This document shows positions 7,613-50,443 of a stretch of DNA of 64,000 nucleotides, in pieces. Position 1 is the stretch's first letter. The number at the start of each line of letters is the position of its first letter. The translations under genes were made by a program, and so were the position numbers. The DNA lies in the IMG/VR virus record IMGVR_UViG_3300048919_000265. One strand, written 5' to 3'. The stretch comes from a virus. The notes beneath the pieces are model-generated. The model worked only from the letters and a program-made list of their open reading frames with translations, did no database searches and was not told where the DNA came from.

Positions 7613-7803
7613 AACATCACCTTACCTCTAATAATCTCTGGTATTTTCAGTATACCTAACCTAATATAATTATGATAGGCATTAAAAGATGCTAATCTAC
7701 TCCTAGCTAAACTTTGGTATGAAGTTGTAATTAATTTCGTAAAATTACTATTTCCTGATGATCTATAACAAAACAAACTTTCTAACCTGCTTAATGCCAT
7801 CAT
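7609..7803 (-). CDS. Small basic hypothetical protein (64 aa)
   Basis: Strong RBS GGAGGG before ATGATG. Fills the gap and overlaps the next start by 4 nt. Confidence 0.55.
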   Translation of the reverse strand: MMALSRLESLFCYRSSGNSNFTKLITTSYQSLARSRLASFNAYHNYIRLGILKIPEIIRGKVML

Positions 7804-7856
7804 TACCCTCCTACAATAAAAATTATATTCAGCGCACAGTTTAACGCCGTATGTAA

Positions 7857-7878
7857 GTTAGGCAGAAACCTGCCTAAC
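7857..7878 (-). terminator. Stem-loop downstream of the 395-aa membrane gene
   Basis: gttaggcag-aaac-ctgcctaac, a perfect 9-bp stem; U-tract is weak. Confidence 0.5.
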
Positions 7879-7883
7879 AAGTG

Positions 7884-14852: not shown

Positions 14853-15303
14853 CGCCCAAAAATTTCTTTTTAATTCTCAATTTTATTGGAATATTTTTAA
14901 AACTTAATAATAAATCTCTATTACACTCAACAATTGTAAGATGATATTCAATAAACTCCTTGTGCTTTATAATTTCTCTAAGGGTTTCTTCGTACTCACG
15001 AGGAATTTGAAAATCCGCTTCCCTCACCGTAGAATCCATTTTCGCGCCATTCACATTCAATATAAATTCCTGATAAATCTTCTCTAATATCAGGCCTTTA
15101 AGCATTTCTTCACGCTCAGTTCTCTCACGATACTCTTTTTCTAAACGTTTATCTCGCTGATACCGATATAACCTAGTTTCACGATACTTATACTGAATGC
15201 CTACCATTATGCGTTGGAGAGGTCGTAGACTAGGTGGGTCTATCTGCCCATCTAAGTCTACGACCTCTCGTAATTTAATTCTCATCCCTAGCCTCCTTAC
15301 CAA
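14839..15303 (-). CDS. Hypothetical protein (about 150 aa)
   Basis: ORF track; likely start is ATG at 15285 after GGAGG. Confidence 0.65.
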   Translation of the reverse strand: MVRRLGMRIKLREVVDLDGQIDPPSLRPLQRIMVGIQYKYRETRLYRYQRDKRLEKEYRERTEREEMLKGLILEKIYQEFILNVNGAKMDSTVREADFQIPREYEETLREIIKHKEFIEYHLTIVECNRDLLLSFKNIPIKLRIKKKFLGGDED

Positions 15304-16507
15304 ACTTAGCCATATCTGATAACTCCTGTTGCGTTAAGGTACTTATCTTACCAAACTGAGACTGTTGCCTAAGAGCTTGCGTACTTTTAAATTTAGCGGA
15401 AGCCTCCGCATTTTGCGTGACAGCATTAACTTTGCTGTCAGTTATGATGCTGCCCACACTCTTCCCATTCAATACCTGGTGCATCTTAATCACAGCCAGT
15501 TTAAAATCAGCTTCGGTGCATTTATTTACATCTAGTGATCCTACAATTCCAGCTAACTTATAGATAACGGAATCCTCTAAAACTTCTTGAATCGAATTTT
15601 TATCCTCCTTAGAAAATTCAGACCCCGATCCACCATACACTAATAAAACAGTGTTCACCATAAAATCTTTAAATTGTATTATAACTGTATCCAAACTGTG
15701 TACAGATAACAAACTTTCAAGCGACTTAGCAGTAGCGTACATACCTTCTCGCATACTCCGATACAAGTCAATAAAAACTTCATTAGATATAAAACCTAAA
15801 TATTTACGTAATTCTTCTTCATTCGGTTTATTTTTAATGCTAAACTCAAGAAGATCAACTAAGTTCCTTGGGATCCCTGCCGCAGACTTTATTAACATCT
15901 CTTCTGTTTCTTTATTAGTTTTGGTAATCCCTAACCGTAACAGTGTCTTATCAAACAAAAACTTAGCTTCTGTCCTATTCAAGCGGGTGAATCTATAGGT
16001 AGCACCCATCGCTCGACTTCTTAATTCTGGCAAAAGTTTATGTTCCTTAGTAGTCGTTACCAGCACTTTAGTGCTATCGTCCAAACGATCAATATGCTCT
16101 AGAAATGGTAATTGCTCGTTTTGCCCTAACGCATGAAATTCTTCCAAAATATACACGTTATAACCATAACTACCTTGCAATGTGAATATTTCTTTTATAA
16201 CATCGTTAATGTCCTTCTTACTATCTAACTTAGCCATATTAATCTTAACCAAGTTCATTGATCTGCCTGTAGAATTGATAGCTCTAACATTAGCTTTACA
16301 ACTATCACACTCTAAGCAAGGCTCATTGTTTTTCAGATTGGTGCACGTTAAATACAAGCCTGTGATATCTGCACAAGAAGACTTACCAGTGCCCATCACT
16401 CCTGAAAAAATAGCGAAACTTTTTAGGGTCTTAAGTTCCAATGAGCGTTGTAACAATGCAATAACTGCCACATTTCCTACAAGTTGTGAGAATTTTGTTA
16501 ATCGCAT
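15275..16507 (-). CDS. dnaX: DNA polymerase III gamma/tau-like clamp-loader AAA+ ATPase
   Basis: F..LVGN start, Walker A GVMGTGKSS, zinc module C...PCLECDSC, Walker B YILEEFHAL, SRC-like LRSRA, C-terminal collar helices. Confidence 0.88.
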   Translation of the reverse strand: MRLTKFSQLVGNVAVIALLQRSLELKTLKSFAIFSGVMGTGKSSCADITGLYLTCTNLKNNEPCLECDSCKANVRAINSTGRSMNLVKINMAKLDSKKDINDVIKEIFTLQGSYGYNVYILEEFHALGQNEQLPFLEHIDRLDDSTKVLVTTTKEHKLLPELRSRAMGATYRFTRLNRTEAKFLFDKTLLRLGITKTNKETEEMLIKSAAGIPRNLVDLLEFSIKNKPNEEELRKYLGFISNEVFIDLYRSMREGMYATAKSLESLLSVHSLDTVIIQFKDFMVNTVLLVYGGSGSEFSKEDKNSIQEVLEDSVIYKLAGIVGSLDVNKCTEADFKLAVIKMHQVLNGKSVGSIITDSKVNAVTQNAEASAKFKSTQALRQQSQFGKISTLTQQELSDMAKFGKEARDEN

Positions 16508-16530
16508 AAATAACTCTCCTTAAATGAAAT

Positions 16531-16559
16531 ATAGCGGTGGGGATAATCCCCACCGCTAT
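16531..16559 (-). terminator. Rho-independent terminator-like hairpin after the 608-aa gene
   Basis: atagcggtgggga-taa-tccccaccgctat, a perfect 13-bp stem; ATTTCATTT follows on the minus strand. Confidence 0.75.
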
Positions 16560-16585
16560 TTGAGTACACAGCCGTATTGCTTCTA

Positions 16586-18412
16586 TTATTGAGCAACGCG
16601 AGCGGCAGCGCGAATATCAGTAATCGAGTTTTCGATTTGTTTGAAATCAACATTAGTATCAGCGAAAGTAATATCGCTTTCATCCAGTTGATGTTGTGCC
16701 AAACCAAGACGCAGGCGAATCAATTGCTCATTGCTTACGAAGTTAGCTGGTTTCTTAGTTGTAGTACGACGAGTAAGTTCACGCAGACGTTCAACAGTCA
16801 AAGCACCATTAGAAGCATCAACAATTGTTTTGAACGCTGGATTATTCAAAGATGCCAATTTGCTCAGCTCAGGATCGTTCAACACGCGTTCGTCAGTAGT
16901 GAGAACTGTTTTGAAACGTGGATTGCCCATAACTCCTGCAGCATTTGGTTTAGCTTCCTTAACAGGAATAGCGATATCGGAAAGAGGCTCTCCTTCTTTT
17001 GCATCGAAGAAAGGACGAACAGTAATTTGCTCGCGCTCATTGATGTTACGTGCAAAGAAAGTAGAAGTAATCTTACCTTCTGCATCAACACTTACCTTGT
17101 TTGCATCTTCAGGAGCCAACAGACTGTATTTACTCTTGTCGTCTCGGTTCTTGCGACCATGAACCAAATTGTGGAAAGCAGAAACATTCAGCTTCTCAAT
17201 TTGCGTTTCGTCCAGCGGTTGGTTGTAGTTAATTGTTTCATAAGTGCGCAGTGGGAAATAGTTAGAATCAATAAACAAACTACGACGTTTGCTAGTTTTC
17301 AACAATGGAACAACCACTTGTTGACCTGTAGGTTGACCATCTTTAGTTTTGTAACGAACAGTAGCTTTTTGTGTTACCACACCAGCAGCTGCTCCACCAT
17401 GAGTAAGTTCGCTTTCTGCAATCTCACTACCAAAATACAAGTCGAGGATTGTAGGATACAGTTCTTTAGACAATACTTGCGTAACCAGAGTACGATTAGA
17501 CTCATCAGCTTGAAGGCGACCTGGTTTCAAGAAGTCTGTCATTTCAACGATACCCCCAGCTGGGATAGTCAAAACCAAACCTTGGATTTTACCAGGCTTA
17601 GCTTGACGAACGTTAATACGAGTCTCAGTTTGTAGATACTTCTTAGCAACTTTTTCGCCTTGTTCATGCGCCTGTTGCACTTCTGCTGGAGCTGTAGCAC
17701 TAACTACAACTTTACCATTTTCCAAACGAGGTTCTGCTGTCGTTATGAACTCAATACGTTTGTCGGTAGCAGTAATGTAACCAATCAAACGACCTTCAGT
17801 GCGATTAAACTTTTGCAGAGAATAAGCGTCTGCAGCTTCCATTTCAGAAATTTGAGAAGAAATTTCAGCACGCAATCCAGATGGTTTACTTTCAGTTGTG
17901 CTAGGCTCTTCGTTAAACGCATTCATTGCAGTGGGTGCTGCATTACCTTCAGTCAAACCTTGCTGCAAATCCTCCAAACCTGTTGAACTCAATTCTGCCA
18001 AACCTTCCAAACCCTTCAAACCGTCTCCCATTACTTTCAGCTCCTTAGCTATTTCTTTTGTTTTGTTAATTTTTCCTGCAGGATATAACTTTTCAATATA
18101 TTCAACACCCGAGAATTGATCTTTACCATTCCATTCCCGAATATTGAACTTTCTTCTGCGAATCTGTTTGGCAACAAGAACTCCATCACTAGAAACTATG
18201 TGTGCTTTATCAATATCAGTCACACTATCTAAGGGCCGGTCACTTGCTACCCATTTCGCACCATCAATAACAATGGGGACTGCAACCTGTAACTTCTCCT
18301 CAGAACTCAACTCCCTGAATTTTGACAACTCAAGAGTGTACTTCAAGTCCATCTCATGAAGAGTCCGCAGTTCACTGTGCTGCATCATAAACTCCATCGT
18401 AATTTCAGTCAC
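16586..18412 (-). CDS. Orphan protein with highly-expressed codon bias (608 aa; possible internal start at 18031)
   Basis: Long ORF enriched in CGT/AAC/TTC/GCT/ACT codons downstream of 18031. Internal AAGGAG-9 nt-ATG at 18031. Has its own terminator. Confidence 0.8.
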   Translation of the reverse strand: MTEITMEFMMQHSELRTLHEMDLKYTLELSKFRELSSEEKLQVAVPIVIDGAKWVASDRPLDSVTDIDKAHIVSSDGVLVAKQIRRRKFNIREWNGKDQFSGVEYIEKLYPAGKINKTKEIAKELKVMGDGLKGLEGLAELSSTGLEDLQQGLTEGNAAPTAMNAFNEEPSTTESKPSGLRAEISSQISEMEAADAYSLQKFNRTEGRLIGYITATDKRIEFITTAEPRLENGKVVVSATAPAEVQQAHEQGEKVAKKYLQTETRINVRQAKPGKIQGLVLTIPAGGIVEMTDFLKPGRLQADESNRTLVTQVLSKELYPTILDLYFGSEIAESELTHGGAAAGVVTQKATVRYKTKDGQPTGQQVVVPLLKTSKRRSLFIDSNYFPLRTYETINYNQPLDETQIEKLNVSAFHNLVHGRKNRDDKSKYSLLAPEDANKVSVDAEGKITSTFFARNINEREQITVRPFFDAKEGEPLSDIAIPVKEAKPNAAGVMGNPRFKTVLTTDERVLNDPELSKLASLNNPAFKTIVDASNGALTVERLRELTRRTTTKKPANFVSNEQLIRLRLGLAQHQLDESDITFADTNVDFKQIENSITDIRAAARVAQ

Positions 18413-18487
18413 TAGTTAATACCACCACCCCCACGTATATTCATCATGAGATAATCAGCCACTGTCTTAAAATACGGTATTGCGTTC

Positions 18488-18515
18488 CTGGCTGTGATTC
18501 GACAATCACAGCCAG
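18488..18515. other. Perfect 12-bp hairpin between the rpoA-like gene and the 608-aa gene
   Basis: ctggctgtgatt-cgac-aatcacagccag; no downstream U-tract on either strand. Confidence 0.7.
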
Positions 18516-18522
18516 AAAATTG

Positions 18523-19218
18523 CTATTCCTCAAGAGAGAGCTCAAAACCTTGATTAACTTCTTCCTCCTCTCTATAGAACTCCGGATCTTTCTGAGAAAT
18601 CCTAGATTGAACCATAGAAACATTTTTAAGCAAAAGACTCAAACTATCCTCAAGCAAACTCATTTCATCTGCTGTATCAGAGTCGACACAAAGGATCAGC
18701 CATTCATCCAACAGAGAAGCTTCTTTAATATCGAAAGTGAAGTTACGTACATTAGTATGGCGCGAATTAAACACCATGTAATCCTCCCTACGTTCTCCAC
18801 TTTCTATTAAGAAATCAGCGTTGCTAGCATGATCCATTTCGCCAGAAGCTTTTCTAAACACAATAGTAAGTGTAACAGCACGATCCTCTAATGATGTCAT
18901 AATAACACTATCTGGACCAGACACTACAAAATTATCAGACATCATTTCGCTACTTCTAAGACTCTTAGTGAAAGTAAACTTCTCCTTAATGAAATTTCCT
19001 TCAAGTCCTTCAGTGGGCACGTACCTTAAAGATGTAACACCTGCCATAATGCTAGGCATATCTTCGGGAATCTCAGCAGTTGTATGCACCGTATTAAACT
19101 TCCTATCTAGTGAAATTGCAATAGGTACCCAAGCCGATAATCTTGACATAGCTATTTGTCGTAATGCATTGCCTACAGCTACACCCACTCCTTTAGGCAA
19201 TCGTACTTCGAGTTTCAT
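18523..19218 (-). CDS. RNA polymerase alpha subunit N-terminal-domain homolog lacking the alpha-CTD
   Basis: GVGVAVGNALRQIAMSRL matches alpha GYGTTLGNSLRRILLSSL; IPEDMPSIMAGV ~ VVEDVTTIIL; TIVFRKASG ~ LTAQRGRG; NSRHTNVRNFTFDI ~ DSIYTPVSRVSYQV; WLILCVDSD ~ KLTLDVWTD. Ends at 231 aa with an acidic tail. Confidence 0.75.
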   Translation of the reverse strand: MKLEVRLPKGVGVAVGNALRQIAMSRLSAWVPIAISLDRKFNTVHTTAEIPEDMPSIMAGVTSLRYVPTEGLEGNFIKEKFTFTKSLRSSEMMSDNFVVSGPDSVIMTSLEDRAVTLTIVFRKASGEMDHASNADFLIESGERREDYMVFNSRHTNVRNFTFDIKEASLLDEWLILCVDSDTADEMSLLEDSLSLLLKNVSMVQSRISQKDPEFYREEEEVNQGFELSLEE

Positions 19219-19775
19219 TATACCACCTCTACAATGTAAGTTTCTTCGCTGTTGTTACCAAAATACAATAAGATAGAAGCAAGAGCAAGCAAATCATTAG
19301 CTTCTAAACGTTCCAATTCTTCATAATTAAACTGGGCGAAAACCCCAATACTAAACCCATCTGTGCTATCTCCATTCTCAAGCACTCCCTTAAGTTCCGC
19401 TACAATATCCTGCAAAACTAATTGCTTCTTTGGTATCTTAGACTCTCTTCCCAAAGAAGTCTCAATTTTAATACAAGGACTGATATCTAACTCTGTACGC
19501 AAAACGTTACACAACATATTAGCCATGTCTTGATAAAAATACTTTAACACCAACGAACACTCGTACAGAAACTGATCTTTACCTCTCAAGTAATCCAATG
19601 CTTTTTTATACACAAATATATCTCGCCCGTACAGATCAGAAACTATTTGCAGATGCAATTGGCTTTTTACATAATTTTCAAAGGTAAACGTCAGATCTCT
19701 GTTGAAAAAGTGCATGTGTATAGGCTTGACGCCACTAACAATAAACATCATAAACTGACTGTACGGAACTATCAT
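19218..19775 (-). CDS. Hypothetical protein (185 aa)
   Basis: ORF coupled to both neighbours by stop/start overlaps. Confidence 0.7.
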   Translation of the reverse strand: MIVPYSQFMMFIVSGVKPIHMHFFNRDLTFTFENYVKSQLHLQIVSDLYGRDIFVYKKALDYLRGKDQFLYECSLVLKYFYQDMANMLCNVLRTELDISPCIKIETSLGRESKIPKKQLVLQDIVAELKGVLENGDSTDGFSIGVFAQFNYEELERLEANDLLALASILLYFGNNSEETYIVEVV

Positions 19776-20821
19776 CAGAACTCCCTCAAATTCAGTAATT
19801 CATTTTTTACAACCTTTTCTTGATCAAAAGATAGATTGCGATCTGCAGCAAACTCACCACTCTTTAGTTCCCAAGCCCGACGCCGTAAATCTTCAATCTC
19901 TTCTTCCAAGGCTGGTAATTTCGACTCTCTGATTGTCTTTAGACTGGCATAATCGTTAGTCAATGACAATATCTTAGCAAGTCCAAATTTATCAATCTGA
20001 GAGATTGAAGCTCCCGTAAAATCAATACCCTCAGCCATCCTAGGATAAACAAGATTAAGATTGTTCAAAAGAAAGACAGCATCCTCCTTCACTAGCCTAC
20101 CATTATCTAATAATTGTTTTATAAACAACTTAAGGGCTGTGGGATTACGGGTGACATTAACGTTAAAGGTGGACATTCCTTCATTCAGGAAGTTGCAGAA
20201 CTCCTCATACAGAGTTGCACCTTTTAACTTCGTGTGTTCAGAAGAAAATGCATGTACTCTATCCGAACCATCACCACAGAAAACTTTATGTGCAGATATC
20301 GTATTAAACATAATCTTTTTACCACGAACAACACTATAATTAAAATTATGCCAAGTAACTCTATTAACATTACTATTGAGAGGCTCCATTGTGACTTTAC
20401 TATCAACATTATGTGAGATATCATAGTCTGCGGTATAAATGGAAATTTTGCTATATTGATCTCTGTTCTTCTCCACAGCACTAAAGATAAGATCATCCGC
20501 TTCAAAACCCTTTACCTTGTACGCAGGTATTCCACACTGCAACAACCGTTCATACAAAAATTCAGCTTGACTATTTACTACATGAGCACTAGGTCGATTT
20601 CCTTTATAATCAGCACTGATAGTTTTGCGATCAGTACTACTATCAAACATAACAGCAACATCTGCCATATTAGATAAATTCAGAACTAGGGTCTTGAGTA
20701 AGTACTTTACCCCACCTAATGGATAACCATGAGCATAAACTTTGCTATACTCATCTATATTTGTAACAGAATGCAAATAACCATGTGCATCATGTAATGT
20801 TAAGTGTCCCTTCACTACCAT
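19775..20821 (-). CDS. Stand-alone 5'-3' exonuclease/flap endonuclease (Pol I N-terminal/FEN family)
   Basis: VMFDS..RK.ISADYKGNR, GFEADDLI, TADYD and CGDGSD acidic motifs. Confidence 0.88.
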   Translation of the reverse strand: MVVKGHLTLHDAHGYLHSVTNIDEYSKVYAHGYPLGGVKYLLKTLVLNLSNMADVAVMFDSSTDRKTISADYKGNRPSAHVVNSQAEFLYERLLQCGIPAYKVKGFEADDLIFSAVEKNRDQYSKISIYTADYDISHNVDSKVTMEPLNSNVNRVTWHNFNYSVVRGKKIMFNTISAHKVFCGDGSDRVHAFSSEHTKLKGATLYEEFCNFLNEGMSTFNVNVTRNPTALKLFIKQLLDNGRLVKEDAVFLLNNLNLVYPRMAEGIDFTGASISQIDKFGLAKILSLTNDYASLKTIRESKLPALEEEIEDLRRRAWELKSGEFAADRNLSFDQEKVVKNELLNLREF

Positions 20822-34071: not shown

Positions 34072-34755
34072 TTAATAATCCGTCACTTCCACCAGAGAAG
34101 TAATTTCAGTCGCATGATTTTTTTCTAATCTGAATTCTCGACGAGGCAAGTTTTTATATCCATCTGCAGATTGTTCTACCATCATTATCTGCATACCTTT
34201 ACTAATAGCCAATTCTATTAACTCCGCCAGTTTACCTAAGTTATCCGAATCACTAGCAGCAAAAGCTTCATCCATTGGAATTATCACACAACCAGCACTC
34301 TCATTTATACCAATAGCACTAGAAAAACTTATCAATTCTTGTAATAATTTTCCTTCATTAATATGTGGTAGACGAGTCCTTCCTTTTTTATCAATAATCT
34401 CTAAGGTTGTTTTAGAGTTACGATTTTTAAAATCACTTTTAACCTTAACTTTAAAACCTTCATACGGAAAAACGTATGAGACATTTTCAGTTATCCGCTC
34501 GGACAAAAACAAAAGACGTCTGTCCTTAAATGCTAAATCTTCGGATATGAACTTCTTATGTAGCCTAACAAGGGCTGTCGCGTAAATATCCGTGTCTCTA
34601 CGCAATTTAGTCGCCTTGCTCAAACGGGCCTGTATCTCTTTTCTTTCACGATTAGCTTGTATCCCCTTCTCGAGAGAATACTGTAAGCTACTTAACTTAT
34701 TCCTAAAGGACTGTAGTATAGCCCGTGAGGCGGTAATATCAATATCAGGCAGCAA
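34072..34755 (-). CDS. C-terminal half of a split Rad50/SbcC ABC-ATPase
   Basis: Coiled coil followed by signature-position NEGKLLQELIS, Walker B/D-loop IIPMDEAFAASD and terminal strand IMMVEQ. No Walker A. Confidence 0.7.
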   Translation of the reverse strand: MLPDIDITASRAILQSFRNKLSSLQYSLEKGIQANRERKEIQARLSKATKLRRDTDIYATALVRLHKKFISEDLAFKDRRLLFLSERITENVSYVFPYEGFKVKVKSDFKNRNSKTTLEIIDKKGRTRLPHINEGKLLQELISFSSAIGINESAGCVIIPMDEAFAASDSDNLGKLAELIELAISKGMQIMMVEQSADGYKNLPRREFRLEKNHATEITSLVEVTDY

Positions 34756-35839
34756 AGTCCTTCCTCCTTATAACAACAATAAATGTCCCATTCTCTAATT
34801 CCAACTGCACAAAAGTTCGCTTTATCTTAATAGTAATAAAGTCATTAGTTATAGCACCTACAACATCTTTCAGAACTTTAGTTGGAAAAACTAGTGTAGG
34901 TATTGCATGTACTGACCCTAGCTCAACTGGTACTGCGGACCCTAATGTCAACTCCTCCAATCCTGAAATTTCGCTTCTCTTTGCGTTGATGGATTCCACA
35001 TCACTATCCACTTTAAATTTAGCAGAAAATCTGATCGACCCTTCCACCACGCGTGCCACCTCTTGCTCGAAATCAAGAACGATAGTATCAGTAAATCCAC
35101 ATGATTTAACTAAGTTACACACATTGGACAACTTAGTCTTCAATTTATGACTATATTTCTCCCTGAGAACCATACTTAAATCGGATTCTATACTAGCCCT
35201 CGATTGCTTAGCAATAATGACTGTATCTTGTCCTCGACCTATTATAAAATTCTGATACCCATAAACATCGTCTGAGAATTTGAGCAAAAAATTAGCAACA
35301 TTGGTATCTAGATTAAAATTCTCGCACCCTGCTTTATAGTACAGTTGCATACCTTTCAATTCTACAACCACCATACCATTATTTACGTTGATAACTGAAG
35401 TTAAATTCTTGATGACTTTTAATGCGCGTTCAACCTTGAATAAATTTATAGGAACAAAATTACCACTGTTCTCCATCAACTCAAGTCTACTATAAATGGT
35501 AGATATGTCACTTGCTTGATAAGTACTATACATATTATACTCTCCACCGCGAGTAGGTTTAATTGTTAATTCAACATTATTGTTTTCCCCGACAAATAAA
35601 TTTACTACACCATCACTGATTAAGGACATAAAATAATTACGGTCAACTCTAACACAAACATTCTCTGTGAAATCCTCTCTAGATATTACCTCTAATGAAT
35701 AGTGAGAGTAAACTTCCACATTATTAGCGATAATCAATACATTATGCTTTAATATTAAGAAATCCAAGAAATCAACTAGTCCTTGTGAAAAGAAAGATTG
35801 TAATTCTCTCGCATTGCGTACATTAAATGTCACCTGCAT
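34745..35839 (-). CDS. Probable divergent DNA sliding clamp (DnaN/beta-like)
   Basis: 364 aa, about beta-clamp size. The N-terminal domain resembles DnaN: MQVTFNVRNARELQSFF; VLIIANNVEVYSHYSLEV; VRVDRNYFMSLISDGVVNLFVGENNNVELTI. Beta-rich three-domain periodicity. DnaX is in the same window. Confidence 0.5.
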   Translation of the reverse strand: MQVTFNVRNARELQSFFSQGLVDFLDFLILKHNVLIIANNVEVYSHYSLEVISREDFTENVCVRVDRNYFMSLISDGVVNLFVGENNNVELTIKPTRGGEYNMYSTYQASDISTIYSRLELMENSGNFVPINLFKVERALKVIKNLTSVINVNNGMVVVELKGMQLYYKAGCENFNLDTNVANFLLKFSDDVYGYQNFIIGRGQDTVIIAKQSRASIESDLSMVLREKYSHKLKTKLSNVCNLVKSCGFTDTIVLDFEQEVARVVEGSIRFSAKFKVDSDVESINAKRSEISGLEELTLGSAVPVELGSVHAIPTLVFPTKVLKDVVGAITNDFITIKIKRTFVQLELENGTFIVVIRRKDFAA

Positions 35840-38409: not shown

Positions 38410-38454
38410 AACAAAAGTTATTCCTCCTTCCTATGCAATTTTAGTAACGTTTAT

Positions 38455-38493
38455 AAAAGAAGGGTGAGCCCACTTGCAGCTCACCCTTCTTTT
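38455..38493. terminator. Bidirectional rho-independent terminator
   Basis: aaaagaagggtgagc-ccacttgca-gctcacccttctttt, a 15-bp perfect inverted repeat with A/T tails on both sides. Confidence 0.85.
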
Positions 38494-38500
38494 TCATCTC

Positions 38501-42190: not shown

Positions 42191-42833
42191 TCATCCAAAC
42201 CTCCTCGCCTCTGCATTTTGAGCTAAGGAAGTTAGACATATCACTAATCTCTAAAAATGGTAACTCTTTCTTCCACTCATTAGACCTAATATCTTCCAAT
42301 AGTCCAGGAGAAAAACTAAACGCTGCCATCTGGTAGCTAGTGCATTCTTCATACTCCTGTTTGCGGAAACTATCAAAATTCTTTTTAAAAACGTTCAGGT
42401 GATTCACATGCTGATTATAGACATCAAATTTCTTTTTGCCAGCCCTAACAATTGTTCCTCTATCTGTTATCCTTTTATCGCCAATGTACCCCTTACACTC
42501 AAATAAATATATTACTTGAGGTGTAAAAAGGATAAAATCTACTTCGGTTAAAAATTCAGTATCAGCTGTGTCTAAATCCTTCAACACTAACCCTTTCGCA
42601 TAAAACCATTTTTCAGTCAACTTTTGATTAAGATTCATAAACTCCAAGATAGCGATTTCCAATACTGTTTCGCAAACCTCACCCGCAACCGTATTCCTAG
42701 TCTTAACCCGAGGATCAGCCTTCTTTAATTCCTCAGATCCAATTATTTTACTAGCAAGTGAAACCGAAAAATTATACCCCCGGTCTCTATACACTTCCAA
42801 CAATGTTTCACGCGTCTTGTCCTTGAATAACAT
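42063..42833 (-). CDS. NERD-family PD-(D/E)xK nuclease
   Basis: GEVCE...TEVDFILFTPQVIYLFECKGY motif. Confidence 0.75.
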   Translation of the reverse strand: MLFKDKTRETLLEVYRDRGYNFSVSLASKIIGSEELKKADPRVKTRNTVAGEVCETVLEIAILEFMNLNQKLTEKWFYAKGLVLKDLDTADTEFLTEVDFILFTPQVIYLFECKGYIGDKRITDRGTIVRAGKKKFDVYNQHVNHLNVFKKNFDSFRKQEYEECTSYQMAAFSFSPGLLEDIRSNEWKKELPFLEISDMSNFLSSKCRGEEVWMIEYCKKAVELIQKDREFFVSKHLSYVTSLHHSKKPNLGSWKC

Positions 42834-44595
42834 CTAATACCCCCACAGATCTTATAAAGACCGAATTGCTGTCAACATCTAATTTGAGTGAATCAAATCC
42901 ATCCATTTGAATATTTTCTCTAGTAGCGTATTTAATTGCTGCATAAGATGCTAAAACTTTCGCTAGACTCCTATGTTTATTACTTGTATTAATAAATTTG
43001 AAGAACATAACTTCATCATAAAACTCTTCTCTAATCATGTCATTATAAATCACAACACCACGATAGCCTGCTTCCGCATATTGGTGCTGTACTTGTAATA
43101 CCTTCTGCTTTAGCACATTGACTATGTCTTCCTTGATAGTGCTATCTGCCAGAAAGTATGCAACCTCATTAGCCTTATCACTATAAATACTCAATACAGT
43201 CTTTTCACCAACAACTTCCGTTCCGGCATATAAGGTATATGTTTCTGGAACTGGCCAATACTCTTCCCCTGCTTCATCCGGAACACAGATACTTATCTTA
43301 TCTGCATTTGCAGTATAGCTAGCTTCTGCTAACTGTTGTAAATCAGTATCAACTTCTTTATAATAAGTACCGTACTCAAAAGATAGGGCAAGAGGTGTCC
43401 AATCATCAACAATAATCGAAGATGCTTGATTAAAAACCCAAGCGTCCTTAAGAACTTCTTTCTTCATCTTAAACACCGGCTCATCATGACGGACAATATA
43501 AAGGCTAACATCCTCTTTCGTGTATCCTAGATCGTAAAACATATCTAAGATGGCATTACAAGTTAAGATAACTATCTGACTTGTACCTGTTTGTACAGGC
43601 GTATTCAAACATTTATTTATAGCGTCTTTCTTTGTATACATAGTAACAGGCTGTTCATACCCAAAATACCCTGTAACAGGGATCATCAGCCCTAGATCAA
43701 AACAATCAGATATTCTACGATAATACTCCGAATATCTCGGACAGGTATCTAAATACTTAGCAAATCTTCCTATAAACTCTTGGTCTCGCGGTGTCTGTCC
43801 GTGTCTTTGTCCATACAAAGTTTGGAGCACGTTAACCTTATACAAATCTCTCTCTGCCATAAACTTGTCGTGATTATGCGGCACATTTTCCCACTCATCA
43901 AGGATTGCTGAAATACCCTCGTACTTATCATCATACTTATCCATGATAGGTCCATTCCAACTATCACGTAATAGTAGATTATACGCAATCCGTAAGTCAG
44001 ACTGTTCAAAATCTCCCCAAGCTAACACATATCCATCTTCGGCAGCATAACAGCTAGTGTACTCTCGGGGAATACTAACCAAGTCAGAATCATGATAATT
44101 AAATCTTAAGTTCTGCTGTTGCTCTGCTATAAAGTGTAACTTATACAAAGTTGAACCGGTAGAACTAACTTTATCTGATTCAGAAAATAACCGTGGCAAT
44201 TTTTCCATCCTTGCGCATCTTGATTTTAATGATGAGTAAGTCATATAATAACCCAAAAACTCCTGAGCATAACCATTCTCGTACAAAGGACCTAGCACTT
44301 TTTTCATATCCAGACTTGCGCGCTCCACACCTTTTTTACTGAACCGCTCGTATGGACATCCTTCTACATTCACCAAGTAAGGAAAGACTGACTCGGAGTT
44401 AAGACTATTATATTCATAACTAGAATTAGCAGCCATAGTTCTCTTTGCTAAAGTTAAATTAGTATCTCTTCTCGCCTCTTCGTGCTTTAGTGTCAGCATC
44501 AACTTATTCTTATCCACATAAACGAATTGCTCATGATTAATTCGTTCTAAATACAGATCTAAATCTATCATACTACTCCTAGTAAGCTTAAGCAT
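42808..44595 (-). CDS. polA: Family A DNA polymerase, polymerase domain only
   Basis: QNLRFNY, motif A WGDFEQSDLRIA, motif B RDLYKVNVLQTLYG, NTPVQTG, motif C VRHDEPVF. No exonuclease domains; about 150-aa extra C-terminal domain. Confidence 0.88.
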   Translation of the reverse strand: MLKLTRSSMIDLDLYLERINHEQFVYVDKNKLMLTLKHEEARRDTNLTLAKRTMAANSSYEYNSLNSESVFPYLVNVEGCPYERFSKKGVERASLDMKKVLGPLYENGYAQEFLGYYMTYSSLKSRCARMEKLPRLFSESDKVSSTGSTLYKLHFIAEQQQNLRFNYHDSDLVSIPREYTSCYAAEDGYVLAWGDFEQSDLRIAYNLLLRDSWNGPIMDKYDDKYEGISAILDEWENVPHNHDKFMAERDLYKVNVLQTLYGQRHGQTPRDQEFIGRFAKYLDTCPRYSEYYRRISDCFDLGLMIPVTGYFGYEQPVTMYTKKDAINKCLNTPVQTGTSQIVILTCNAILDMFYDLGYTKEDVSLYIVRHDEPVFKMKKEVLKDAWVFNQASSIIVDDWTPLALSFEYGTYYKEVDTDLQQLAEASYTANADKISICVPDEAGEEYWPVPETYTLYAGTEVVGEKTVLSIYSDKANEVAYFLADSTIKEDIVNVLKQKVLQVQHQYAEAGYRGVVIYNDMIREEFYDEVMFFKFINTSNKHRSLAKVLASYAAIKYATRENIQMDGFDSLKLDVDSNSVFIRSVGVLDVIQGQDA

Positions 44596-45602: not shown

Positions 45603-47732
45603 TCACTCATCCATAAAAATCATCTTTTTAAACTTTAATGGTTCTTTAGATCCTTCCGCATACCGATCAAACAAAACTCCCAATTTACTACTTACAGTTT
45701 CTGGGAATTCTTCAGCACCCACCTTACGGGCTTGTGTATCTGTTACACCTTCCATAAGATAATACCGTATTCCACTAGCCAAGCCATTTAAATCTGTTAT
45801 AGTGGTAGTAGTCAATATGAATCGTATATTAGCCGCGGAACAGTCTTGCAATACCTTCTTAAAATTTTCTATTTTATTATTCTTAGAATCACGTCCCCAT
45901 CCAAGAACCTTGTCTAATCCAACAATCCAATTAAACACGGGCTTCAAATGGTTATATGTCATCATTTGATCTTTACAACCATTAGCTTCTGCTAATTTTA
46001 TATAATTAATAATTAACTTTTTGCGAGCCTCCAATAAATCTTCACCACTAAGGCCCCCTAACTTTAAACCTTGCACATAAGAATTCTCAGTACTCAGAGT
46101 TAAAACATGATAGCAACGATACCTATTTAACATAGTATCATAAGAAGATCCCTTATCAAAACACATATAGAAAATTGTGTCAGTATTATCATCAGTATGA
46201 CGTTGTTGAGAGAACACCTGTTCCTCGGCTTCCAGCGCTATTTTTCTATAATAGACTGCACCGAGATATGCAGTTATTGCAGGACTATCTGCATCCCTAC
46301 CATCTAGGATTTTAGGATTTAACTCTTCAAGACCTATTTTAGTGGTCACCTTTTTATCCGCAGAAATGACATTCACGAACACTGATGATCCCATAGCCTT
46401 AAGGTTCTCTTTAATCATTTTGGAGTACCTGACGACATTAAGAGAATTATCGCACCACACCATCATATTCTCTATCTCATCACCTGTAAATTCAAGTCTG
46501 ACATAGTTATCGTCATCTTTATCCCGCATAACAAACGATGGTTCCCCTAAATAAATCTTTTTGTTGCTTCCACCCTTAGAAGAAATAAGTTCTCTGAACT
46601 CTTCTTCATTCAACAAGGACTCTTCATTATAAAATGAGAATTTATGTCTAAACCCAACTTCTGTACCAATGCGATCCAGCTCCAATAGCATTTCTTTGAA
46701 TTCTTGATCCCCTTGGTATGGAACCCTATAATGCACATTATCTTTTTTATCTGCGTTACCTGGTTTAGTGTTTATAATTAATCGACCTTTGGCACCGAGA
46801 TTCATGTTAGCTTCGGTGTTACCAAGCAGTTTATTAGAAACATCAGGCATACATCCAAGTGCCATGCGAACGTTGATATTGTTCAACGTAGCAGTTGGTA
46901 TTTCCCCTGGTTCCTGTGAAGCCAACAACAAGTGATAACCTGTACTACGACCAAGACGGGCAAAATCATCCAAAAGGTCTTGAATTATTTTTGCTTTCTT
47001 AGCTGCATTTTTAAAGAGAGTTTGGAATTCGTCTACAACAATAAGATTACGCGGATAGTTTAAACCCGTGTACTCACGGAACTTTATTAAGTTATCTGTG
47101 CCACCATGCTCCGAAAACATAGCATTTACTTGTATCATCTCATCGCGCAATTCTGTGAGCACACTAATTATATATTCCGCATCAGTAGTTGCCGCTATAG
47201 ACGAAGTATGGGGAAGTATTCCTCCTGAAACCGCATACTTCTTAAAACCCGCTATCTTGGCATCTGCTAATGTGATCTTTAGCTCCCAAGGTGCGTACTT
47301 TAGTGCTAGTGCCTGTATAATACTATCAAGTAAAACAGATTTACCACCACCTGTCATGCCACCGGCAATGGCATGGATGTCCTTATCATTGAGTTCAGCA
47401 CTAGATGGATACCGGCTATCCCCATTTTTATAACCCAGTCCAAGAAGATTTATCCCCTTATGGGAATTACCCTCCCAAATTGGGAAATTATTTTTATACA
47501 GAATAGGGCCGTCAAAACGTAATATCCTCTCTGGCTCTGCATCTCCTTTTTTAAGTCTGCTAAGTGGTTTAGGAATCCTGACTTCTCTAGGATATTGACT
47601 TTCCTGAGAGTGTTTCAGAAAATACTTCGCTACAAACTCATCAAACATTAAGGGGGAAGAACCCCCACGTATAAAGTCTTCCTCTACCAACTTTGTTTGT
47701 TCTAAGATGCTAGTTTCATCAATGGAGTACAT
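45603..47732 (-). CDS. FtsK/SpoIIIE/EssC-family ATPase (one intact plus one degenerate domain)
   Basis: HAIAGGMTGGGKS, LADAK, IVVDEFQ, RLGRSTGYHLLLASQ, RMAL. A second degenerate repeat starts at YLGEPSF. No TM segment and no gamma domain. Confidence 0.85.
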   Translation of the reverse strand: MYSIDETSILEQTKLVEEDFIRGGSSPLMFDEFVAKYFLKHSQESQYPREVRIPKPLSRLKKGDAEPERILRFDGPILYKNNFPIWEGNSHKGINLLGLGYKNGDSRYPSSAELNDKDIHAIAGGMTGGGKSVLLDSIIQALALKYAPWELKITLADAKIAGFKKYAVSGGILPHTSSIAATTDAEYIISVLTELRDEMIQVNAMFSEHGGTDNLIKFREYTGLNYPRNLIVVDEFQTLFKNAAKKAKIIQDLLDDFARLGRSTGYHLLLASQEPGEIPTATLNNINVRMALGCMPDVSNKLLGNTEANMNLGAKGRLIINTKPGNADKKDNVHYRVPYQGDQEFKEMLLELDRIGTEVGFRHKFSFYNEESLLNEEEFRELISSKGGSNKKIYLGEPSFVMRDKDDDNYVRLEFTGDEIENMMVWCDNSLNVVRYSKMIKENLKAMGSSVFVNVISADKKVTTKIGLEELNPKILDGRDADSPAITAYLGAVYYRKIALEAEEQVFSQQRHTDDNTDTIFYMCFDKGSSYDTMLNRYRCYHVLTLSTENSYVQGLKLGGLSGEDLLEARKKLIINYIKLAEANGCKDQMMTYNHLKPVFNWIVGLDKVLGWGRDSKNNKIENFKKVLQDCSAANIRFILTTTTITDLNGLASGIRYYLMEGVTDTQARKVGAEEFPETVSSKLGVLFDRYAEGSKEPLKFKKMIFMDE

Positions 47733-47734
47733 CT

Positions 47735-50365
47735 TTACTTTCCTCCTGCTCTTCGCTGCTTCTCCTCATTCCATATTTGGGCGAACATAGTTTTCAAATC
47801 CTTAGCTGCTTGCACACTGCTAAACCGAACTTGTGACTCTGCTTCCTTAAATTCCAGGACCTTAACAACCCAATCCAGAATGAGCGGTTCCAGGGATGAT
47901 AACGTATTTTGTGAAGGTCGAATGTTCTCCGGGACATCACTTGATCCACCAATAATATACTTTTTAACCCCATTAATTTCTCTACTTGCGAAACAGCCGA
48001 TAACCTTCCCATTGTGCGTAAAGGCTACCTTGTTATCCGTTTCTTGGAAATGTACTATAGAAGGGTGTGTTGTATCTTCAATCAGCTCAATTGGTTTATC
48101 TGACGCGGGTACCACTGATTCCTTCTCAACAGTATTAGTTACAATAGGCGCTTTGCTTTCTTCTATCTTTGTCTCAGTTGCACCAGCGAAAGAATTCATA
48201 CCAGCCAATCTAGACGCTATTCCCTCAGCAATGGCAGCACTCTTAGTTTCTTGCTCTACTGAGACATTACTCCACAATTGACCTTCGTTAACGTAACCAT
48301 TACTTAACATTGTTTCTAAGTAAATATTGGCGGACTCTGTCAATTGTACATCCTCCGACATAAATTCGATTTCTCGTTCATCGAATTTGGCAGAAGCCTT
48401 CAAAACGATAGGTGCAAGCAAAGTAGCAATATTAGTTCTGACGTAAAGTTCTTTGGGTACATTCGCAACCTCAGTCATCTTATACTGCAACTCTTCTTTA
48501 TTACGGAAGGCTAGCATTTCTCCCCATTTAGATAATTTAGTATCTGAATACAGATACTCAAACAATATACTTAGGGTGGACAAATTGCTAACACTATATT
48601 CTAATTTTAAACCTTTAACTGTATCAGACTCATAAAAAACAGCTTCCTTAGCGGTGGAAGCTTCTGCTGACTCATTTGCAAGTCGGAGAGCTATTTTGCT
48701 GTTAAGCACATCACTACCTGCATTAACAACTAATTTACCGTTGTTATACTCAATACCTTTAATCCAATCAGAGTTGTTTTCTTTCAGACGACTGATAACA
48801 TCAAGGAAACTCAAATAAACAACCTGTCTTGTTCCACCTTCAAAATATTTCTCACACGCGAGACCAATAGGAATGTTTATTTTTGCATTACTGATATTTA
48901 ACTTCTTTCTATACTCGAGGTCTCGGAATTTATCATCATACGTGATAACTCCCTTAATTCCCATCTCATATAAACCATCGATCAATACAGGCTTCATATT
49001 ACTAATATTGCCTGTATTGCTTCTTATGATGAATTTGTTCATATCTAAGTAGTTATTGAAGTCACCTAATTTAAGCACAGTTGGTTTCATTTCGCCCCAA
49101 CGGGATAATTTGATTATTGCTTCGACATGAGCAGCGAAACCCATGCCACCTTGCTCGGCAGCCAACATGATAAACTTATTAAGCAACAACGGTCCGTCTA
49201 CTATACCCGTACTTTGATTTGGGAAATACTCTGCGCTTCCATATTCTCCATCGGAAGATGCAGCTCTTTCATCATCCTCATCCTCATCCGCGTAAGACAA
49301 TGGGAAATTTCCACAATGCATCCAATTTAATGTGGAAACTCGGTTAACAAATTCAGACAATAATTCTACCATTCTAGGTGAAGCAACGCATCTAGAAAAT
49401 AGATCTTCTGGATTATGATCAGGGAAAGTCTGCTTAATATCAAACATAATCAATTCAGTCAGTGCATGCATAAAATCTTGCTCATTTGGTTGCACTTCTA
49501 AATCATTATTATCTACAGACCCCTCAACTAATCTGAAATCTATTCTCGGGATATCCTCTAATTCTTCCTTGGTAGGGTTTATCCCTAAAAGGGACGCAGC
49601 AGAAACTAACTGCTCTCTCATTTGACTTCTGTTATATCGGAAGATGTCCTTATAATAAGGAGTAAAATAAATAAAGTGTGGATAGGGTTTAGCTAAGTCT
49701 TTTCCAGTTGGGACGAGTTGCGCTATCGAAACATCCATACTTCGCAATCTATCATAAGAAGGCAGTTCCATAAAAAATGTATCATAGGGACTACGCATAA
49801 ATTGCGTCCTATTTATGTCTGAGCGAATATACTTAAACTGTGGCCCCATCTTACTGTTCCAGTCACGTACCGCAGGAATAGTAACTGCTGGATTTATGTA
49901 CGTCATTTCTGGAGCCAGCACTTTAAACTTTTCTTCGCCCTTGATATAATTGTCAAGTAATAAATAAGTCTCTTGAAACTTGATAACTACATCTGCATCA
50001 ATGCCTGTATTAGTAGACGATTTAGTTAATTGTGCTGCAATTTGGGACGCGTATTCTTTAGTAAAAGTAGGTTTGTTTTTACAAAAATTATACAACGTGG
50101 TTATATCCAACGTACCATTAGGACTACCTGAATCTGGGACAACCGATAATGGCAGTCCTGCTCCTAGGCGAGGTTCCTTTGCAGGGTCCAAAGTCGTAAT
50201 GTTTACACGCTCGCCATAAGTTTGTAAAGTAGTTAAAACTTGCTCCTTACCCAGCATCTCCCTAAAGTCTACCAAACGAACTTCTCCATCAATATTAACT
50301 TTACTCAGAAAAACTACATTCACTGAGCTTCCTTTATACAAAGGCAAAGGAACATAATAAAGCAC
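47735..50365 (-). CDS. Large hypothetical protein (876 aa)
   Basis: GTG start after GAGGAGG; acidic stretch DEDEDDE; no motif recognised. Confidence 0.75.
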   Translation of the reverse strand: MLYYVPLPLYKGSSVNVVFLSKVNIDGEVRLVDFREMLGKEQVLTTLQTYGERVNITTLDPAKEPRLGAGLPLSVVPDSGSPNGTLDITTLYNFCKNKPTFTKEYASQIAAQLTKSSTNTGIDADVVIKFQETYLLLDNYIKGEEKFKVLAPEMTYINPAVTIPAVRDWNSKMGPQFKYIRSDINRTQFMRSPYDTFFMELPSYDRLRSMDVSIAQLVPTGKDLAKPYPHFIYFTPYYKDIFRYNRSQMREQLVSAASLLGINPTKEELEDIPRIDFRLVEGSVDNNDLEVQPNEQDFMHALTELIMFDIKQTFPDHNPEDLFSRCVASPRMVELLSEFVNRVSTLNWMHCGNFPLSYADEDEDDERAASSDGEYGSAEYFPNQSTGIVDGPLLLNKFIMLAAEQGGMGFAAHVEAIIKLSRWGEMKPTVLKLGDFNNYLDMNKFIIRSNTGNISNMKPVLIDGLYEMGIKGVITYDDKFRDLEYRKKLNISNAKINIPIGLACEKYFEGGTRQVVYLSFLDVISRLKENNSDWIKGIEYNNGKLVVNAGSDVLNSKIALRLANESAEASTAKEAVFYESDTVKGLKLEYSVSNLSTLSILFEYLYSDTKLSKWGEMLAFRNKEELQYKMTEVANVPKELYVRTNIATLLAPIVLKASAKFDEREIEFMSEDVQLTESANIYLETMLSNGYVNEGQLWSNVSVEQETKSAAIAEGIASRLAGMNSFAGATETKIEESKAPIVTNTVEKESVVPASDKPIELIEDTTHPSIVHFQETDNKVAFTHNGKVIGCFASREINGVKKYIIGGSSDVPENIRPSQNTLSSLEPLILDWVVKVLEFKEAESQVRFSSVQAAKDLKTMFAQIWNEEKQRRAGGK

Positions 50366-50415
50366 ATTAATAGCCTCCTCATAATCCGATTAAAATCGTA
50401 CCCTAAATAACAATA

Positions 50416-50443
50416 GGGAGAGGCGCAAAATCGCACCCCTCCC
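50416..50443 (-). terminator. Terminator-like hairpin after the WXG100-like pair
   Basis: Minus strand gggaggggtgcg-attt-tgcgcctctccc, 12 bp with 3 G.U pairs that form only on this strand, then TATTGTTATTT. Confidence 0.6.

Follow-up and report, generated by a model that had tools for sequence, protein, structure and literature searches.

A CTD-less RNA polymerase alpha subunit of large plasmid-like Bacillota elements that also encode a fused beta-beta' polymerase

Gene Content of the Alpha Locus

The window, i.e., the whole 64,000-nt stretch of DNA that was analysed, has a GC content of about 36%, and nearly all of its long ORFs lie on the minus strand. The gene under study encodes an alpha-like protein; it and its neighbours are listed below with the evidence used.

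15275–16507, minus strand: DnaX-like clamp-loader subunit, conserved block (domain search)
16586–18412, minus strand: conserved protein of 570–616 aa, directly downstream of alpha in each long locus read (synteny)
18488–18515, minus strand: 12-bp GC-rich hairpin without a U run, right after the alpha stop codon (sequence)
18523–19218, minus strand: element-encoded RNA polymerase (RNAP) alpha N-terminal domain (alpha-NTD), 231 aa (profile, model, family alignment)
19218–19775, minus strand: conserved 185-aa protein without a known family, directly upstream of alpha in all loci read (synteny)
19224–19229, minus strand: Shine–Dalgarno-like GAGGTG within the 3' end of the upstream gene (sequence)
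19775–20821, minus strand: 5'-3' exonuclease, conserved block (domain search)

The alpha ORF starts with an ATG codon, with GAGGTG 5 nt upstream, and its start shares one base with the stop of the preceding gene. Judging from these junctions, translational coupling of alpha with the upstream 185-aa gene is likely. The original prediction placed the gene outside the rpsM-rpsK-rpsD-rpoA-rplQ context, and the ORFs read in the window bear this out.

The order exonuclease–185-aa protein–alpha–~600-aa protein–DnaX is shared by all long loci read, even where alpha identity falls to ~23%, and the contigs that carry them reach 447 kb; in one locus, three additional genes are located ahead of DnaX. The 185-aa protein contains a near-invariant YVKSQxH motif. 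As an RpoL/Rpb11-like partner of alpha it was ruled out, having no detectable alpha or Rpb11 likeness (profile probability 1.5%). The downstream protein, which is 608 aa long in the window, has no significant match in Pfam, NCBIfam, PHROG, phage or plasmid searches; it is a possible further component of transcription or replication. Other genes around alpha encode a PilB-like ATPase, UvrD, a DHH protein, SbcCD-like proteins, a primase and an FtsK-type ATPase.

The hairpin that follows the alpha stop codon may be terminator- or promoter-like. GC-rich hairpins on the minus strand are found in each of the gaps at 7613–7883, 16508–16585, 18413–18522, 38410–38500 and 50366–50534, and the stem is mostly followed by an AT-rich word, not by a U run. 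Such hairpins may act as terminators of a non-canonical kind, or else as hairpin promoters for an element RNAP.

Several side observations concern the remaining gene content. A putative private replisome would comprise the DnaX-like subunit (15275–16507), a clamp-sized protein of 364 aa (34745–35839) and a PolA-like, polymerase-only gene (42808–44595). In relatives, the neighbourhood of the RNAP gene includes a large polymerase of family A (L022:1475–5743), and the element of the cultured isolate described below encodes a DnaB helicase and its own Hsp70 (L026:7395–9182). On the minus strand at 45603–53008, an FtsK-type ATPase is located near two ORFs of ~100 aa and a coiled-coil protein, an arrangement that is syntenic in the isolate. 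This module is reminiscent of type VII/WXG100 systems, the WXG100 likeness having been judged by eye only. The region 58400–64000 appears to be variable cargo with ORFs that resemble, by eye, a short-chain dehydrogenase and an amino-acid permease; no homologues of this cargo were found on the syntenic isolate contig.

Structure and Family of the Alpha-like Protein

When a single sequence is compared, the likeness of the ORF to alpha subunits is weak but real. A search of PDB sequences gave a best E of 1.3e-4, and all 38 matches were alpha subunits; the Pfam RNA_pol_L domain matched with an E of 0.011, and the NCBIfam RpoA model with an E of 5e-11 over residues 7–219, at 42 bits against a curated cut-off of 277. 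The profile of the 113-sequence family matched solved alpha-NTDs end to end with an E of 1e-20. The AlphaFold model (pLDDT 96.5, pTM 0.87) was superposed on alpha-NTD over 199 residues with a Z of 19.7 and an rmsd of 2.7 Å (Foldseek E 1e-13), and in the structural superposition its residues 1–207 correspond to residues 21–228 of the Thermus thermophilus alpha. Profile and model thus agree with the similarity to alpha-NTD over about 205 aa that had been noticed from the letters of the sequence, and the profile comparison proposed at that time has returned an alpha-NTD fold. Identity to cellular alphas is 14–20% in structure-based comparison.

At its N-terminus, the protein lacks the ~20 residues with which cellular alpha begins. 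At the other end, the ORF stops ~20 residues past the last helix, which leaves no room for a linker or a C-terminal domain (CTD). The protein is confirmed as a complete alpha-NTD, with dimerisation and insert subdomains, minus the first ~20 residues and minus the CTD.

A sequence search of 1.84 billion representatives with the alpha ORF gave 118 matches, nearly all of them proteins of ~200 aa; four were ordinary full-length alphas. The result is a family of more than 110 divergent CTD-less alphas of 182–232 aa. The absence of a CTD claimed for the 231-aa window protein holds for the family as well, in which no member is longer than 232 aa. The acidic tail described together with it is present in the window protein and shared with a few close relatives; it is not a family-wide feature. 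As a functional substitute for the CTD, the tail was rejected because it is not conserved in the family: the median number of residues past position 200 is seven, and more than 20 such residues occur in only 5 of the 113 members on which the profile and the residue counts are based.

Identity across the family is 20–25%, which indicates very fast divergence, and Arg20, Pro32, Gly126, Asn133, Ser152 and His154 are family-specific near-invariant residues. In a quick tree, 43 element alphas were separated from five cellular alphas by a branch of 1.97 with an SH-aLRT of 99. The element alpha is therefore not a recent copy of a host rpoA.

Distribution of the Elements

Lachnospiraceae bacterium 47-T17 is the one species genome in which the conserved alpha block was found. 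Syntenic homologues of ~30 window proteins are located on one of its contigs, which is 103 kb long and has a GC content of 37%; the contigs with the host rpoA and rpoBC genes, by comparison, have 50–52% GC. Surveys of 401 Lachnospiraceae genomes and of 399 genomes of the class each revealed the element alpha in a single genome, the same one both times; two further matches in these surveys were full-length host alphas. For the RNAP gene described below, Paraclostridium bifermentans is a cultured carrier. Searches of IMG/VR, INPHARED phages and PHROGs revealed no relatives. In PLSDB, no match was found for alpha, the 608-aa neighbour or the PolA-like gene, and the element RNAP matched only ordinary rpoBC at low identity. 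The carrier is a large element of Bacillota, here called plasmid-like.

The Fused Beta-Beta' RNA Polymerase

In the 47-T17 genome, the beta and beta' families were each matched twice: by the host rpoBC and by a single frame of 2751 aa on a contig with 37% GC. Judging by gene order shared with Paraclostridium, with no overlap at the junction, this contig appears to continue into the contig that carries alpha. A search with the 2751-aa protein revealed 262 fused beta-beta' proteins (clusters), some with more than 800 member sequences, and one of them is assigned to the element studied here.

Outside the window, ~18.6 kb past its end: fused beta-beta' protein P0220, presumed partner of the alpha (protein search)

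The longest contig of P0220 and that of the window alpha are both given as 212,527, and therefore P0220 is taken to be the RNAP of this element. The alpha P0004 and the RNAP P0218 are encoded in one record, ~72 kb apart. In the elements, the distance between the alpha and beta-beta' genes is about 63–72 kb, and they do not form one operon; in relatives, the two genes co-occur on one contig or in one genome.

The P0220 type is a single chain of the bacterial type, with domains in beta-then-beta' order and an external-1 domain; the Rpb2_45 and Rpb2_6 domains were also found. Its identity to host rpoBC is about 21–35%, depending on the segment. The catalytic Asp triad is kept in all 120 element RNAPs listed (NAD[FY]DGD in 118, variants in two), and neither the second Zn site nor the lysines of beta that bind substrate vary among the 74 element RNAPs aligned. 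By its residues, the element beta-beta' is catalytically intact. The original suggestion to look for rpoB and rpoC on the element has thus led to a fused enzyme with an intact catalytic centre, and the search for a sigma gene to a protein of ~790 aa that is only weakly sigma2-like.

Other features of the enzyme can be noted. The rifampicin-pocket segment of P0220 (residues ~430–455) differs strongly from that of the host enzyme, so that the element RNAP may be insensitive to rifampicin. P0220 and most of the proteins P0132–P0230 have a long acidic tail followed by a terminal (M/L/I)-x-x-F, which is kept across ~33% identity and may serve as a tag for docking or sorting. The four elements read (L029, L030, L035 and L020) all have three ORFs of 63–93 aa ahead of the RNAP gene, behind a gene of ~300–380 aa and a ligase-like gene; one of the three might encode an omega-like or other small subunit.

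The Alpha-Beta Interface

The DGRTG loop of beta, which presumably docks on alpha-I, is nearly invariant in the element RNAPs, and therefore these enzymes still seem to need an alpha. We take Asp1084 of the E. coli beta to be the partner position of alpha Arg45, which the DGRTG and Asp1084 sites would both contact. Only 16 of the 74 element enzymes have Asp at the position of Asp1084, and the window element's own beta is one that retains it. On the alpha side, Gln21 of the window protein is located at the Arg45 position of E. coli, and this position is occupied by Gln in 70 and by Arg in 4 of the 113 family members. The R45A substitution in the E. coli alpha abolishes alpha2-beta formation (PMC3294249). 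Besides Arg45, residues of cellular alpha in the His66–Glu67, Tyr152 and Asp174–Tyr177 regions are replaced in the family.

The changes at the Arg45 and Asp1084 positions can be read as a relaxation on both sides of the interface, and the pattern would fit an enzyme that is still dependent on alpha, with a re-tuned contact. The divergence of alpha and that of the RNAP track each other in five pairs with a Pearson coefficient of 0.98, where two of the five pairs were joined by equal contig size. The pairing of P0044 with P0212 is based on equal contig size plus neighbouring run numbers. This correlation may equally be expected from co-inheritance of the whole element.

Loss of Promoter-Reading Parts and a Sigma-like Candidate

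The flap region of the element RNAPs aligns with that of the host beta and is shortened at the tip: it spans 25–41 residues (median 29.5) vs. 46 in the host, and the tip segment is gone. The N-terminal zinc ribbon of beta' is absent in all 74 element RNAPs. Beside the alpha CTD, these are the parts with which upstream promoter DNA is read together with sigma70. Together, the losses of the alpha CTD, the flap tip and the zinc ribbon suggest an orthogonal enzyme that would ignore UP elements, activators and the -35 box.

In all four relatives read, the RNAP gene is followed, a few genes downstream, by an ORF of ~790–910 aa; three of these ORFs were aligned, and P0253 is the homologue in this element. 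The feature match of the 790-aa protein to a Sigma70_r2 cluster is 0.91, and 7 of the top 50 rows of the structural comparison are sigma2 or sigma-like domains at residues ~91–185 (Z 3.9–5.1, from a model with a pLDDT of 62). No HMM match and no significant Foldseek match were found for it. The protein is a weak candidate for a sigma-region-2-like factor, not an assignment.

Proposed Role of the Alpha and Alternatives

Since the element has its own fused catalytic subunits beside alpha, it probably builds a private transcription enzyme of the cellular type. We propose, with a probability of roughly 0.6, that Bacillota plasmid-like elements assemble a private RNAP of the bacterial type on this alpha, and that the enzyme is set apart from host sigma70 and UP control. 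Two element alphas would dimerise via their conserved helices, and the dimer would dock the fused beta-beta' via a co-evolved interface to give an alpha2-(beta-beta') core that functions separately from the host RNAP. Such a core could dispense with the CTD because the private enzyme would use neither UP elements nor host activators. The loss of the flap tip and zinc ribbon suggests that promoters are recognised with neither a -35 element nor sigma region 4, probably by way of the ~790-aa sigma2-like protein. The fold of the alpha, its missing CTD, the fixed synteny, the co-occurrence with an intact beta-beta' and the residue changes all belong to the observations that favour this proposal; against it stand Gln at position 45, which is the signature of Francisella alpha2, the Asp1084 kept by the window beta, the location of the two genes outside one operon, and the weak sigma signal of the 790-aa protein.

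The same signature leads to an alternative in which the element alpha takes the beta'-facing alpha-II position of the element polymerase and a host alpha, with Arg45 and a CTD, takes alpha-I, as in the alpha1/alpha2 of Francisella. Francisella alpha2 (RpoA2) has Gln at 45, forms no homodimer and needs an Arg45 partner (PMC3294249); thus, pairing with a host alpha is conceivable for the element protein too, and it would agree with the DGRTG loop and the Asp1084 equivalent kept in the window beta and with the finding of no second alpha-like ORF in the element DNA examined. However, the variation at the Asp1084 position, with Asp in 16 of 74 enzymes, fits a rewired interface better than a conserved host alpha, and a protein with 14–20% identity to cellular alpha would have to pair with the alphas of hosts as different as Lachnospiraceae and Paraclostridium. 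We consider this pairing unlikely. A heterodimer could also be formed entirely from element proteins, with an unrecognised Rpb11/RpoL-like second subunit as in archaea and eukaryotes. Gln45 would then suggest subfunctionalisation, and candidate genes exist among the several small conserved ORFs that flank the RNAP gene and in the 185-aa gene coupled to alpha; however, the profile of the 185-aa neighbour does not match alpha (probability 1.5%), and a second copy was not detected with the family HMM in either the window or the isolate element DNA examined, which makes such a platform very improbable.

The original prediction offered two options, service to an element-encoded RNAP or entry into the host RNAP. 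The former is well supported by a beta-beta' that is encoded on the element and co-occurs with alpha in relatives, while the latter has lost ground. In the latter case, the element alpha would remove one or both CTDs from the host RNAP and damp UP-element- and activator-dependent transcription. An assembly domain without a CTD is what this would take, and in engineered oriented heterodimers an alpha lacking Arg45 does occupy one position of the E. coli RNAP (PMC3294249). Nevertheless, invasion of the host enzyme is disfavoured because the contact residues of cellular alpha, i.e., Arg45 and the His66–Glu67, Tyr152 and Asp174–Tyr177 regions, are replaced and every case checked had a cognate beta-beta' on that element; moreover, a cultured isolate maintains the element, and searches of IMG/VR, INPHARED and PHROGs gave no phage relative. 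It appears improbable that the host polymerase is the target. Finally, the very fast divergence, with 20–25% identity across the family, might be expected of a vestigial or repurposed alpha fold without a role in a polymerase, but this is hardly credible given that more than 110 lineages have retained the full length and the gene position and have acquired near-invariant residues of their own, and that the fold is intact.

The proposed private RNAP can be extended to the elements as a whole. On balance, we lean slightly towards regarding them as undescribed, widespread secondary replicons of Bacillota with a complete orthogonal bacterial-type transcription machine and their own replisome. As part of this joint reading, and with the same slight preference, the machine would consist of the CTD-less alpha, the fused beta-beta', and a non-canonical sigma-like factor and promoters of its own.

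The usual assumption is that plasmids are transcribed by the polymerase of the host. If the proposal is true, a complete RNAP of the cellular type, with its assembly platform, would be seen in a bacterial mobile element for the first time, in a way comparable to what large eukaryotic DNA viruses do, and Bacillota cells would contain a second lineage of bacterial-type RNAP that evolves independently. Such a lineage would be a natural test of the roles of the flap tip, the zinc ribbon and the CTD, and of the way in which alpha-beta rewiring separates two polymerases that share a cytoplasm; a further candidate use is as an orthogonal expression system. Members of the family are frequent in metagenomes, with 262 RNAP clusters, and the family is directly testable since cultured carriers exist (Lachnospiraceae 47-T17, and Paraclostridium bifermentans for the RNAP gene).

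Comparison with Known Systems

In a literature search with limited coverage of subscription journals, no description of this alpha family or of the element RNAP was found. The protein is a variant of a known subunit; what is surprising is a bacterial element that encodes both alpha and beta-beta'. The element alpha has the whole alpha-NTD fold in common with bacterial RpoA (T. thermophilus 4g7h, C. jejuni 4noi); unlike RpoA, it lacks the CTD, the linker and ~20 N-terminal residues, has Arg45 replaced, is encoded outside the alpha operon on a mobile element, and is additional to the host rpoA. Chromosomal beta-beta' fusions are known in Helicobacter and Wolbachia, where they form the cell's only RNAP and work with an ordinary alpha and sigma70. 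The element RNAP is likewise one chain in the cellular order, whereas it is a second enzyme, about 21–35% identical to that of the host.

Francisella alpha2 is similar in that it, too, is an additional alpha that evolves fast and has Gln in place of Arg45 (PMC3294249). It is chromosomal, bears a CTD and works in the only RNAP of its host, whereas the element alpha is element-borne, CTD-less and has its own beta-beta'. According to the main texts of their descriptions, Inocles (PMC12340149) and Hodors (PMC12934698) are also plasmid-like Bacillota elements of 200–400 kb with mostly unannotated genes. These main texts mention no RNA polymerase (PMC12340149, PMC12934698). The Hodor module is described there as containing Rep_3, ParA/ParB, SecYEG and a 7300-aa surface protein (PMC12934698). 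The InoC-type domain PF13814 had no match in the draft genome of the isolate that carries the element.

Among mobile RNAPs, those of the phiKZ/AR9-type jumbo phages are likewise two-barrel, cell-related enzymes that belong to the element itself (PMC7598289, PMC7824862). The multisubunit RNAPs of jumbo phages lack alpha (PMC7598289), and in the phiKZ/AR9 type beta and beta' are split; here, beta-beta' is fused, has the bacterial-type external-1 domain, and is accompanied by an encoded alpha. The NCgl1702-like and YonO-like enzymes share with the element RNAP the single-chain two-barrel organisation and the occurrence in mobile elements of Gram-positive bacteria, and they lack the flap (SBHM) insert (PMC7824862). 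In contrast to them, the element RNAP has a shortened flap, an external-1 domain, the full beta-then-beta' order and an alpha.
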